DNA of 64,000 nucleotides from Betaproteobacteria bacterium (GTDB lineage Bacteria > Pseudomonadota > Gammaproteobacteria > Burkholderiales > JACQAP01). The notes beneath the pieces were generated by a model, which ran no database searches, had not been told where the DNA came from, and was given only the letters and a program-made list of their open reading frames with translations. The position numbers were made by a program, and so were the translations under genes. Numbering within the stretch: position 1 is the stretch's first letter; each line of letters begins with the position of its first letter. This document shows positions 30,725 to 30,855 of the stretch, one piece after another. The stretch is from the NCBI GenBank assembly GCA_039931685.1, contig JBDTRK010000001.1:7190-71189 (forward strand). The letters are read 5' to 3'.

Positions 30725-30855
30725 GGCCAAGTAGCTCAGTCGGTAGAGCAGAGGACTGAAAACAAGCGGCTTCATGGCTTGTTTCCGTGAAGGCTAACCT
30801 TTCACGTAAGTGCAAGGTTATGCCGGAGCTAAAATCCTTGTGTGGGTGGCCGCCG
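30725..30855 (+). pseudogene. Disrupted tRNA-Phe-like copy (5' half intact, 68-nt insert in the anticodon loop, T-loop and 3' acceptor strand missing)
   Basis: 30725-30762 matches positions 1-38 of the intact tRNA-Phe at 38/38. 30831-30849 matches positions 35-53 with one substitution. CCGCC follows directly with no T-loop. Confidence 0.6.

Follow-up and report, generated by a model that had tools for sequence, protein, structure and literature searches.

The window, as we call the whole 64-kb (64,000-nucleotide) stretch of DNA that was analysed, carries an intact tRNA-Phe(GAA) gene, a broken copy of it upstream and a short unit downstream that repeats its 3' end (Table 1). The broken copy opens with a faithful 5' half, taking in the 5' strand of the acceptor stem, the D arm, the 5' strand of the anticodon stem and the loop CTGAAAA, which a self-BLAST within the window matched to the intact gene with E=5.7e-16. 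An insert then interrupts the anticodon loop. Beyond it the tRNA sequence resumes with the 3' part of the anticodon loop, the 3' strand of the anticodon stem, the variable loop and the 5' strand of the T stem, where GGTGG runs straight into CCGCC; the 7-nt T loop is absent and no 3' acceptor strand follows. A sequence-only reading of this DNA had claimed the 38/38 match, a 68-nt insert (30763-30830) with AAAA on both sides, the resumption at positions 35-53 with one substitution and the loopless GGTGG to CCGCC junction, and sequence comparison bore out each of these. Its 'duplicated AAAA' is better read as an element with a start of its own, AAAAC, placed precisely between G34 and A35. Counted with its own leading AAAA the insert is 72 nt long, and the tRNA-derived part of the 5' half probably ends at G34 (30758).

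A direct-repeat unit of 177 nt is made up of the insert, positions 35-53, the spacer and the positions 1-38 that come next. The spacer contains a hairpin (30866-30880) that is terminator-like by prediction and differs only in its loop in two loci of relatives, L113 and L127. It is followed by an A/U-rich stretch directly adjoining the mature 5' end of the intact tRNA-Phe, and the spacer's end, ...GCAGCACAGT, is found also in L137, L104 and L001. The spacer is probably processing context.

The only promoter-like site upstream of tRNA-Phe in the intergenic region stands before the broken copy, with none predicted between the copies; shuffled sequence gives a mean of 0.2 such sites. Its -10 element and GCGC/GCCGCGC occupy the same relative place in L001, L004, L113, L027, L104, L041, L135 and L137. 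Because this conserved promoter with its G+C-rich discriminator lies upstream of the broken copy, the copy is probably a transcribed part of the pre-tRNA leader, removed when the 5' end of the tRNA is processed. On the other side of the intact gene, and 41 nt past it, the trailer unit ends in an exact 21-nt copy of the tRNA 3' end (31019-31039; positions 57-76 plus C). The trailer's GCCAAGGG and CCCTTGGC are able to form an acceptor-like minihelix ending CACCA, and the unit is present once in the window, once in L127 and 4.9 times, in perfect tandem, in L113. Both the promoter and the 3'-end copy had been overlooked in the sequence-only reading.

Table 1. Features at the tRNA-Phe locus, in coordinates of the window
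Feature	Position	Strand	Details
Sigma-70-type promoter	30591..30620	+	TTGGCG-18-TATAAT with G+C-rich discriminator GCGCC; 10/12 match
Copy of tRNA-Phe positions 1-38	30725..30762	+	38/38 identity
Inserted hairpin-repeat element	30759..30830	+	exactly between tRNA G34 and A35
Conserved hairpin core H2	30781..30836	+	covariance model R1, 52 bits, E=3.2e-12
Copy of tRNA-Phe positions 35-53	30831..30849	+	18/19, substitution C48 to G
Pseudo T stem GGTGG/CCGCC	30845..30854	+	loopless; near-palindrome centred on GGCC
Spacer of unit	30855..30901	+	hairpin GGACTG-ccca-AGTCC, then A/U-rich ATTGTATTTGCAGCACAGT
Intact tRNA-Phe(GAA)	30902..30977	+	ARAGORN; Rfam RF00005, 71.6 bits
Trailer unit, 62 nt	30978..31039	+	hairpin CGATTTCGCCG..CGGCAAAATCG, then GCCAAGGGGT, then 21-nt tRNA 3'-end copy

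Nature of the broken copy

As the insert is in the anticodon loop, where 37/38 is one possible placement, the locus might be taken for a true tRNA-Phe gene interrupted by a bacterial anticodon-loop intron, a reading we find barely credible. ARAGORN called only the intact gene; with its intron and pseudogene options (-i, -ps) it made no call at 30725-30855, and the sequence spliced in silico gave 0 genes. Since the T loop and the 3' acceptor strand are absent, no foldable tRNA is left once the insert is removed, and the Rfam tRNA model scored the broken copy at 19.9 bits, under the gathering threshold (compare the intact gene in Table 1). At 68-72 nt the insert has no Rfam intron match and is, as the sequence-only reading held, too short for a group I intron. 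The same element is also found within D loops, within T loops (there on the opposite strand) and at hundreds of intergenic sites outside tRNA genes, and an intact tRNA-Phe follows 139 nt after the 5' part of the broken copy. The insert is not an intron at this locus.

That the copy is an ordinary tandem duplicate in decay, struck by a chance insertion, or else an assembly artefact, is very improbable. The missing T loop and 3' acceptor strand, the substitution and the sub-threshold tRNA score would all suit a plain pseudogene. However, L113 and L127 come from independent assemblies by different projects and carry identical junctions, which makes misassembly very unlikely. Near-perfect 5' halves survive in 12 broken copies, in genomes with saturated flanks, and the insert is a recognisable member of a repeat family, at a specific site common to tRNA-Ser loci. 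The absence of the T loop is real, but it is not a private lesion: the unit has inherited it, since L113 and L127 show the same gap. The whole pseudo T stem is the same in these two loci, and an inverted variant (GCGGCCACC / GGCGCCACC) occurs in L104 and L041. No relative was found with an ordinary tandem tRNA-Phe pair in graded decay; relatives show the interrupted architecture, and the earlier view that this is not the simple decay of a tandem duplicate holds. For annotation, such tRNA-like fragments are to be treated as neither introns nor misassemblies.

The hairpin repeat and its target

The insert is one copy of a structured hairpin repeat of ~45 nt with the core GGCTAACCT..AGGTTATGCCGGA. 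When 185,579 species genomes were scanned, the pattern GGCTAACCT-N(1-25)-AGGTTATGCCGSA was found in more than 117 genomic stretches among the matches listed, nearly all from Betaproteobacteria. The covariance model R1 detects 130 copies in 96 loci and has its only match in the window at the core given in Table 1; the family consensus is GTTTCAGTGAAGGCTAACCTTCAGGTTATGCCGGAACTAAAAC. Gallionellaceae, Methylophilaceae, Rhodocyclaceae, Sulfuricellaceae and Burkholderiales all carry the repeat. Its copies are intergenic, in either orientation to the genes and beside unrelated ones, stand in tandem arrays and inverted pairs, and are spread over several contigs of single MAGs (for example JANONV01, with L017, L032, L044 and L045). 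Inverted pairs 80-300 nt apart are seen in the Gallionella loci L017, L052, L063, L025, L057 and L032; the window copy is not paired in this way. The proposal that multiple copies of the insert would point to a MITE-like element holds in substance: the family is multi-copy across genomes, but the window holds a single copy with neither terminal inverted repeats (TIR) nor target-site duplication (TSD).

The conserved hairpin, H2, is built on a basal helix, GTTTCCGT/GCTAAAAT, in which a C.A mismatch is conserved. Above this come an internal loop of 3x3 purines (GAA/GGA), a helix (GGC-TAACCT / AGGTTA-(T bulge)-GCC) and an apical extension of 14 nt that pairs with itself. Of two pairings proposed from the sequence, CAAGC..GCTTG is real and can be extended to AAACAAGC (30760-30767) and GCTTGTTT (30777-30784), the arms of a variable hairpin, H1. 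The other, GTGAAGG/CCTTTCAC, finds no support in the family comparison; the pairing that is conserved and covaries is instead GGCTAACCT/AGGTTA-T-GCC together with the basal helix (30781-30836). Helix cells were paired in 87.5% of cases as against 27-44% in slid controls, and double-change cells numbered 73 as against 25 in shuffles, with 0/500 shuffles reaching the observed value. Examples are a change from AU to GC at P1 and from GC to AU at P2 in six sequences. Across the family, wobble pairs favour the transcribed strand by 73:25. An outer closing helix round the element was considered and dropped as a general feature, the mean longest stem being 7.0 against 6.6 for mismatched flanks.

A permissive search of Rfam 15 (E<=10) with 30400-31300 returned nothing but tRNA, and neither there nor in six representative loci did any family cover the hairpin. 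The repeat had no description in Rfam 15 or in the literature searched, where literal sequence strings matched only unrelated primers; the REP survey PMC3733652 held nothing relevant to the hairpin. Viral contigs and PLSDB plasmids contained no copy of it, and thus gave no sign of a phage or plasmid origin. With its covarying helices and conserved purine loop, the repeat is a candidate for a new element of REP/PATE-like type or a new RNA motif.

Four junctions fall in tRNA-derived sequence, all of the form G^AA and all without duplication or loss of tRNA bases: CTG^AAAA in the Phe anticodon loop, TTG^AAAA in the Ser anticodon loop, TTG^AATG in the Ser D loop and CGG^AATC in the Phe T loop, on the opposite strand. 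Canonical copies are flanked by G on the left in 15/16 and by AAA on the right in 16/16. The element occupies the same site as in the window, G34/A35, in L113, L127, L137, L027, L104 and L041. Judged from four junctions only, the hairpin seems to insert sequence-specifically at (T/G)G^AA(AA), with a signature that would fit a process like single-strand transposition (HUH/Y1-type, IS200/IS605 or RAYT-like), and insertion may be tolerated only in redundant tRNA copies. The anticodon loops of tRNA-Phe(GAA) and tRNA-Ser(UGA) both read TG^AAA(A), which would account for these being the two tRNA species found affected. A tblastn search with IS200 TnpA and RAYT queries found no match in 138 loci and the window (~0.9 Mb). 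If this picture is right, the tRNA junctions are a rare 'before and after' record, and so precise a target offers a lead to the enzyme that moves the element.

Recurrence and exchange at tRNA loci

The architecture of tRNA 5' half, hairpin, anticodon-stem 3' strand, spacer and intact tRNA recurs upstream of tRNA-Phe(GAA) and tRNA-Ser(UGA) in many assemblies of Burkholderiales and other Betaproteobacteria, as one to three units in tandem or with mirrored polarity. The recurrence of one arrangement before both tRNAs shows the broken copy to be neither an intron nor a randomly decaying duplicate. The tRNA-Phe loci with one to three upstream units are those of the window, L113, L127, L137 (two in tandem), L027, L104 (three in tandem) and L041; the tRNA-Ser(UGA) loci are L016, L024, L069, L076, L077, L097, L101, L122, L125, L126, L134 and others. 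Upstream units measure 166-257 bp, and in all of them the hairpin is co-oriented with the tRNA. The 5' half is matched at 38/38 in L127 and in both copies of L137, at 36/38 in L113, at 33/34 in L027 and at 33-34/34 in the three copies of L104. The mirrored loci, L132 and L135, have the intact tRNA-Phe first, then positions 24-35, the hairpin and positions 35-76 (42/42). In the closest relatives, L001 and L004, the 5' half has been lost, as it has in L050, L068 and L128; the decayed loci L001, L004, L050 and L128 keep the hairpin and the anticodon-stem 3' strand, which lie 15-75 nt before the mature tRNA.

We lean towards regarding the broken copy as a truncated, non-functional extra copy of tRNA-Phe that carries a mobile, or formerly mobile, REP/PATE-like hairpin at G34/A35 and is maintained by recombination. 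The tRNA fragments may be products of tandem duplication with unequal recombination, like those of the E. coli tyrT region, that were trimmed afterwards, and a truncated duplicate would then have arisen independently at two tRNA genes. The broken copy itself would need no function. Concerted evolution, with recombinational exchange involving the functional gene, would account for its perfect 5' half: gene conversion with the functional neighbour would keep the identity at 38/38, as would homologous exchange from one lineage to another, for which the invariant tRNA sequence may supply the homology arms. Private anticodon-arm variants of L041 occur in both its broken copies, and in most loci the Ser 5' halves match their own intact gene at 97-100%, even though the intact genes differ from genome to genome.

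Exchange is also suggested by a discordance between the unit and its surroundings. The MFS protein of the window is 90% identical to that of L001 and 64% identical to those of L113 and L127, whereas the block of insert plus spacer is 62% identical to L001 and about 94% (92-96%) to L113 and L127. The block is thus closest to distant genomes and the flanks are closest to L001, which appears to point to recombinational exchange. When the window is compared with L113/L127, identity is 53-55% in the flanking intergenic DNA, and the adjacent gene is saturated at its third-codon positions (33-35%). L135 and L137 have upstream flanks that are 94% identical and opposite architectures; L126 and L129 have common flanks and a different tRNA-Ser module, the difference beginning exactly where the hairpin is joined. 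In some broken copies the tRNA-Ser is of a foreign type. A triple compensatory change in the anticodon stem of broken copy 1 of L122 (CCTGA/TCAGG) was dropped as proof of selection because it may be the fossil of another tRNA-Ser allele.

Several findings go against a truncated copy with a mobile hairpin. No transposase or recombinase was linked to the hairpin in the loci searched, one copy per 64 kb is sparse for an active REP family, and the hairpin has no GTAG/CGTC tags of the kind found in REPs. The identity of the insert and spacer beside saturated codons could equally reflect purifying selection on a functional RNA, and the constant co-orientation and the wobble bias fit an RNA role. On such a reading, which we consider unlikely, the 5'-half mimic and hairpin are a selected, structured part of the pre-tRNA-Phe or pre-tRNA-Ser transcript. 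This leader RNA might serve in processing or stability, act as a decoy or as a platform to which a tRNA-binding enzyme attaches, or regulate tRNA maturation through alternative pairing. The unit does lie, co-oriented, between a conserved stable-RNA-type promoter and the tRNA, its insert and spacer are far better conserved than the intergenic DNA around it, the differences between the window, L113 and L127 fall mostly in loops, and what the four decayed loci retain is the hairpin with the anticodon-stem 3' strand.

However, the architecture varies, with one to three units, two mirrored loci and five without a 5' half, and with foreign tRNA-Ser sequence in some copies. The hairpin is a generic intergenic repeat, found in both orientations beside unrelated neighbours. 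In RNAalifold the nine tRNA-Phe units were too similar to give informative covariation, and a predicted alternative pairing of the D arm with GGAGCUA was without covariation; the minimum-free-energy fold of the whole leader gave a single-sequence z of only -1.9, too little to be informative. The discordant identities fit exchange better than selection. We give somewhat less credence again to the wider proposal that a selected, co-transcribed leader module of pre-tRNA-Phe and pre-tRNA-Ser(UGA) exists in Betaproteobacteria, with the hairpin family as an RNA motif. If it did, the leader would display a D arm together with an anticodon arm that is extended and ends in A36-A37-A38. It could regulate how the cognate tRNA matures, or it could be a decoy or a docking point for a nuclease or another enzyme that binds tRNA.

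It is similarly doubtful that the units are recombination scars or mini-cassettes, with the hairpin marking where a recombinase crosses over as it integrates small circles into the anticodon loop. On board each circle would be the hairpin, positions 35-53, the spacer and tRNA positions 1-38, and integration would restore an intact tRNA while displacing the 5' half; 31019-31039 would be a classical T-loop attachment-site repeat. Such integration predicts the observed order exactly and in both polarities, and the tandem units of L104 and L137 look like serial integrations. The exchanged tRNA-Ser module starts exactly at GGAGCT/AAAACCG (L126 compared with L129 and L138), L136 has an intact tRNA-Ser of one type nested in fragments of another, and the sequence at the 3' end of the hairpin, GGAGCTAAAATCC, resembles the anticodon arm GGACTGAAAATCC. 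The T loop and the anticodon loop were reportedly described by Williams in 2002 as sublocations of integrases in tRNA genes, and the 21-nt repeat begins in the T loop. Yet these loci contain no integrase or island genes, their neighbours being core genes (groEL, an MFS transporter, DctPQM and hemA), the units are small, and viral contigs and PLSDB lacked the hairpin. Elements that integrate in tRNA genes duplicate the 3' part of the tRNA and are not known to duplicate the 5' part, which is the main repeat here. Unequal homologous recombination between the 38-nt repeats accounts for the tandem copies, which thus need no dedicated enzyme.

If the truncated-copy reading is correct, tRNA-Phe and tRNA-Ser loci carry arrays of truncated, hairpin-interrupted copies that evolve in step with the functional gene, in some cases keep foreign tRNA alleles and seem to pass from one lineage to another by exchange. 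They would then be a small-scale model of how ultra-conserved essential genes become landing pads for, and carriers of, selfish or regulatory DNA.

Comparison with known systems

Group I introns occur in the anticodon loops of bacterial tRNA genes, in tRNA-Leu(UAA) of cyanobacteria and tRNA-Ile of Azoarcus. The insert shares their position but measures 68-72 nt where they exceed 200 nt, has no ribozyme core (P3-P9) and sits in a host copy unable to fold into a tRNA. tRNA-Phe and tRNA-Ser are classical targets of integrative elements and, as at their attachment sites, direct repeats of tRNA segments here start or end in the anticodon loop or the T loop. Of the repeats, 31019-31039 alone is, like an attachment site, a downstream copy of the 3' part of the tRNA; 30725-30762 does not fit. 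Unlike in known elements, the main repeat is the upstream 5' half, with the opposite polarity, and the units are shorter than 260 bp. No integrase lies between the repeats, which are only 41 nt (3' copy) and 139 nt (5' copy) from the gene, or at the loci of relatives.

REP elements and RAYT transposases are reportedly the subject of work by Nunvar in 2010. Like REPs and REPINs, the hairpin is an imperfect palindrome with bulges, intergenic, multi-copy and present in both orientations, forms tandem arrays and inverted doublets (the latter in Gallionella loci) and is conserved across genera. Its arms resemble inverted half-sites of ~20 nt (GTTTYAGT-NNN-GGC(A)TAACCT). REPs and REPINs, reportedly treated by Bertels & Rainey (2011; PMC3116915), are mobilised by RAYT transposases (Y1 HUH enzymes), whose genes usually have REPs on either side. 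The consensus of the hairpin, unlike theirs, has no GTAG or CGTC tag, and the hairpin is present here as one copy per 64 kb, with a variable H1 attached and a G^AA(AA) context in tRNA-derived sequence. Another betaproteobacterial intergenic tandem repeat, the BRE of Bordetella and Comamonadaceae (TTTTTTTGGCCGCGGGCCGCCCAAGGC..., 69% G+C), is described by Hot et al. (2011; PMC3110155). The hairpin likewise occurs in tandem, but it is unrelated to the BRE sequences and belongs to a different family.

A MITE would have a TIR and a TSD, and only some Gallionella composite copies of the hairpin (L093 and L107) are bracketed by inverted repeats, of 13-15 nt. IS200/IS605 transposons and PATEs, from the work of Ton-Hoang, Barabas, Chandler and colleagues, are said to move as single strands. 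The hairpin is like them in its precise placement by a short specific sequence, without target-site duplication or terminal inverted repeats, and in that a hairpin would act in cis. Complementarity between the GTTT 5' of the hairpin foot and the AAAC / AAAA flanks is reminiscent of their guide-cleavage pairing, and a preference for potentially single-stranded sites (tRNA loops) fits the targeting of single-stranded DNA. IS200/IS605 elements, however, have distinct left-end and right-end subterminal hairpins that TnpA recognises, where this one has a single conserved hairpin, H2, beside the variable H1.

In the E. coli tyrT region, 178-bp units are reportedly repeated ~3x downstream of tRNA-Tyr, each with the last ~19 nt of the tRNA (rtT RNA), as Egan and Landy in 1978, Rossi in 1981 and Bosl and Kersten in 1991 are said to have described. 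The locus in the window resembles it in having tandem units with a terminal tRNA fragment (here positions 57-76) within a tRNA transcription unit. It differs in its upstream 5'-half units with a hairpin, which tyrT lacks, and in sequence; as there is no Rfam RtT match, the trailer unit is an analogue of rtT and not a homologue. As at tyrT, the tandem units here presumably arose by unequal recombination.

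The interrupted tRNA unit in the window and in other genomes

The broken tRNA-Phe copy lies upstream of an intact tRNA-Phe(GAA) gene and is surrounded by core genes (groEL, an MHS-family MFS transporter with top homologues from uncultured Burkholderiales, DctPQM and hemA). The sequence-only reading described it accurately: a perfect 5' half, a 68-nt insert, and a second fragment in which GGTGG runs directly into CCGCC and the 3' acceptor strand is missing. The insert is unmatched anywhere else in the window. The copy scores 19.9 bits with Rfam tRNA, below the gathering threshold. 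We found no promoter-like site between the broken and intact copies.

Features of the tRNA-Phe locus, in window coordinates
Feature	Position	Remarks
Sigma-70-type promoter TTGGCG-18-TATAAT, then GCGCC	30591-30620	Upstream of broken copy
Leader hairpin GTTCG-actcccaaa-CGAAC	30688-30712	Upstream of broken copy
Copy of tRNA positions 1-38	30725-30762	38/38 identity; self-BLAST E = 5.7e-16
Hairpin matched by covariance model	30781-30836	52 bits
Copy of tRNA positions 35-53	30831-30849	One substitution
Intact tRNA-Phe(GAA)	30902-30977	ARAGORN call; Rfam tRNA 71.6 bits
Trailer unit	30978-31039	62 nt
Copy of tRNA 3' end (positions 57-76 plus C)	31019-31039	Exact, 21 nt; 41 nt after intact gene
Promoter-like TTGACAGC..GATAGTT	31089-31118	Upstream of DctP gene

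Three explanations were rejected. ARAGORN made no call for the broken copy in intron or pseudogene mode, and removing the insert in silico still gave no tRNA; the element is, as already proposed, much shorter than any group I intron could be, and no ribozyme family matched. The usual island scar does not fit, with integrase and foreign DNA absent and the main repeat of the wrong polarity, nor does an assembly artefact, as the junctions are common to independent assemblies.

Comparison with loci from other genomes (L001-L138) argues that the broken tRNA is a recurrent architecture and no private lesion. The order upstream of the intact tRNA-Phe is tRNA positions 1-34/38, a variable hairpin (H1), a conserved hairpin (H2), tRNA positions 35 to about 51 and a spacer. 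One such unit is present in L127, L113 and L027 (5' halves matching the tRNA at 38/38, 36/38 and 33/34 positions), two in L137 (38/38 each), three in L104 (33-34/34) and two in L041 (27/27 against the window's tRNA, with its own variants beyond). Relatives thus carry the same interrupted unit instead of a tandem duplicate in graded decay. The absent T loop is not peculiar to this copy: the same loop-less GGTGGCCGCC is common to the window, L113 and L127. L132 and L135 are mirrored: the promoter is followed by the intact tRNA, 23 nt, and then positions 24-35, the hairpin and positions 35-76 (42/42). A comparable arrangement is found ahead of tRNA-Ser(UGA) in twelve or more loci, among them L016, L024, L069, L076, L077, L097, L101, L122, L125, L126 and L134, some tRNA-Ser(UGA) loci having extra hairpins in the broken copy's D loop.

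In all the upstream-unit cases a -10 element and then a G+C-rich discriminator, which is typical of stringently controlled stable-RNA promoters, lie upstream of the first broken copy. This suggests that the hairpin-interrupted units are probably part of the primary tRNA transcript.

The leader hairpin at 30688-30712 is the positional counterpart of ATCCGAT-tcccc-ATCGGAT, which precedes the tRNA starts in L127, L027, L104 and L041; the structure is kept, the sequence is not. The promoter-like site upstream of DctP is conserved in the window, L001, L127, L132, L135 and L137, the intergenic DNA around it is not. In L132 (oriented) the upstream 'intact' tRNA-Phe, at about 106-180, is one A short in its anticodon loop, which has 6 nt (CTGAAA), and a hairpin interrupts the downstream copy; either a homopolymer was misread in sequencing or the locus has no functional copy.

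The trailer unit is also found, with its 3'-end copy, in L113 and L127. In L113 (6341-6641) it is amplified to 4.9 perfect 62-nt tandem copies, each with tRNA-Phe positions 57-76, between tRNA-Phe and hemA, and DctPQM is absent there. The unit comprises a hairpin, CGATTTCGCCG..CGGCAAAATCG, and then GCCAAGGG-GTGATTCCG-CCCTTGGC-CACCA, an acceptor-stem-like minihelix that ends in CCA and derives from the 21-nt 3'-end copy; as RNA it could pass for a tRNA minihelix.

A family of hairpin repeats

The motif GGCTAACC..GGTTATGCCGGA recurs beside tRNA-Phe fragments in syntenic relatives (L001, L002-L005), and in L001 also as two tandem reverse-complement copies within a T-loop fragment downstream of the tRNA. 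Scanning 185,579 species genomes for GGCTAACCT-N(1-25)-AGGTTATGCCGSA gave at least 117 matching stretches; nearly all among the matches listed are Betaproteobacteria (Gallionella, Sideroxydans, Methylophilus, Rhodocyclaceae, Sulfuricella and Burkholderiales MAGs). The consensus, GTTTCAGTGAA-GGC-TAACCT-(2 to 25 nt)-AGGTTA-T-GCC-GGA-ACTAAAAC, has a basal helix in which a C.A mismatch is conserved, an internal loop that is symmetric (GNA/GSA), and an upper helix with a bulged T and a variable tip that self-pairs when long.

A covariance model with 40 copies as input matched 130 copies in 96 loci. The idea of a multi-copy, MITE-like insert therefore holds for the family, but the window has exactly one copy (the next best match in the 64 kb scores 11.6 bits). 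Pairing is present in 87.5% of cells in the model alignment, against 27-44% with the partner slid, and 73 cells changed on both sides, against 25 in shuffles (0/500 reached the observed value); these counts lean toward structure because the alignment was fitted to the model, and the slid controls and raw flank counts agree with them in direction. Examples are AU/GC/CG exchanges in P1 and GC to AU in six sequences in P2.

Copies are intergenic and occur in both orientations relative to genes, more often on the upstream gene's strand; there are tandem arrays in L006 (6 x 83 nt), L008 and L029, and inverted pairs. No Rfam 15 family matches the hairpin, none of the viral contigs and plasmids searched carries it, and we found no description of it in the searchable literature. 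The Bordetella BRE repeat was ruled out, as its sequence differs.

In Gallionella, hairpin copies are part of a ~130-nt composite repeat preceding unrelated genes, which include an rbgA-like GTPase gene, grxC, rpoN and gatB/yqeY-like genes. This multi-copy repeat of Gallionella/Sideroxydans, atatgtaagcaag...caacgaagttgctgtgta-HAIRPIN-actaaaatctggatttttagaggtgccc (e.g. L026 5480-5615, L017, L032, L044, L093, L107), has a Shine-Dalgarno-like AGAGG at its end, only a few bases ahead of the start codons; the L093 and L107 versions are flanked by 13-15-nt inverted repeats (CTCTAAAAATCCAGA). The L006 array (5533-6081) is built of an 83-nt unit in six to seven tandem repeats. Each unit combines a hairpin copy with another small hairpin (CGCGAAGTAACTTCGCG), and the array lies at a gene 3' end about 600 nt from a tRNA-Pro/Arg/His cluster; its orthologues in L012, L019, L020, L084 and L122 are single or double copies. 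The L073 copy (1117-1160, minus strand) follows a near-consensus promoter, TTGACG-17-TATAAT, and precedes a gene that begins MYAVIK and looks like rplU (ribosomal protein L21), and so would fall in a 5' UTR; similar promoter-proximal copies occur in L009/L028/L038 and L010/L115. In L054, L067, L092 and L094 a second palindrome, either ATTCCCGC..GCGGGAAT or ATTCCGGC..GCCGGAAT, contains the copy in its loop; this palindrome resembles the Neisseria dRS3 repeat (ATTCCC-N8-GGGAAT).

Insertion junctions and apparent exchange between lineages

Because the adjacent intact gene supplies the pre-insertion sequence, the junctions can be read directly. They are CTG^AAAA in the tRNA-Phe anticodon loop (G34/A35), TTG^AAAA in the tRNA-Ser anticodon loop, TTG^AATG in the tRNA-Ser D loop and, on the opposite strand, CGG^AATC in the tRNA-Phe T loop (L001). 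As no tRNA base is lost or duplicated at any of these four sites, the AAAA said to be duplicated around the insert is best read as the start of an element that itself begins AAAAC, the foot of H1, with a precise junction after G34. The foot covaries with GTTT (CAAC/GTTG in L076, GAGC/GCTC in L024). Outside tRNA contexts, canonical short copies are flanked by G on the left (15/16) and AAA on the right (16/16). With the usual anticodon-loop layout of U33 and purine 37, the two tRNA species that have a TG^AAA(A) loop are Phe(GAA) and Ser(UGA), the same two that were found affected.

The sequence GTTT in the hairpin 5' foot complements both flanks, and the element has no terminal inverted repeats. 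Together with precise insertion by a short specific sequence and without duplication, these features suggest, from four junctions, single-strand transposition of the HUH/Y1 type (IS200/IS605, PATEs, REP/RAYT).

In L041 the anticodon arm of the intact tRNA-Phe is private (GCGGA-TTGAAAA-TCCGT), and its changes recur on both strands in each of the two broken copies. Intact tRNA-Ser genes differ from genome to genome, and tRNA-Ser 5' halves are in most cases 97-100% identical to the intact gene of their own locus. Broken copies follow their own genome's variants, so they evolve in concert with the functional copy beside them, by gene conversion or recombination.

The MFS protein of the window is 90% identical to that of L001, 84% to L004 and 64% to L113/L127, whereas the 139-nt block of insert and spacer is 62% identical to L001 and 94% to L113/L127. 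The L113 and L127 blocks are 91% identical, so the window is nearer to each than they are to one another. High identity with L113/L127 sets in precisely at the first position of the broken copy (53-55% in the intergenic DNA upstream) and stops at the intact tRNA 3' end (trailer 74-77%). L135 and L137 have 94% identical upstream flanks and opposite architectures, and in L126 and L129, which have common flanks, the module reaching from GGAGCT|AAAACCG to the 3' end of the tRNA comes from different tRNA-Ser types. Fragments of two tRNA-Ser types adjoin in L136 and L123/L126/L129/L138, and in L136 an intact type-1 gene has the 5' part of a type-2 gene on one side and that gene's T-arm/3' end on the other. 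This arrangement of two types looks like a fossil record of allele replacement.

Lineages thus appear to have exchanged the block, most simply by homologous exchange that used the invariant tRNA sequence as its anchor. Together with unequal crossing-over between the 34-38-nt repeats, this would explain both the one to three tandem units and unit loss. Alternatively, the same identity figures could come from purifying selection acting on the leader, combined with its loss in L001 and L004.

Origin of the architecture

We lean, a little beyond even chances, towards a truncated tRNA-Phe pseudo-copy inside the pre-tRNA leader that a REP/PATE-like hairpin colonised. Recombination would have generated the pseudo-copy and would keep it similar to the functional gene, and the 3'-end trailer unit would be a by-product like that of tyrT. 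Several points weigh against this: a mobilising enzyme was not found (tblastn of the 138 loci and the window with IS200 TnpA/RAYT queries), the element is sparse in the window and without exception takes the orientation of the tRNA, wobble pairs are biased to the transcribed strand (73 against 25 in favour of the strand shown, conserved C.A position excluded), and insert and spacer are strongly conserved. Because of them we keep a functional leader RNA as an unlikely alternative, and a dedicated site-specific cassette mechanism as a somewhat less likely one. Both the hairpin family and the leader architecture with an interrupted tRNA seem to lack an earlier description; they relate to known kinds, REP-like repeats and tRNA-fragment repeats.
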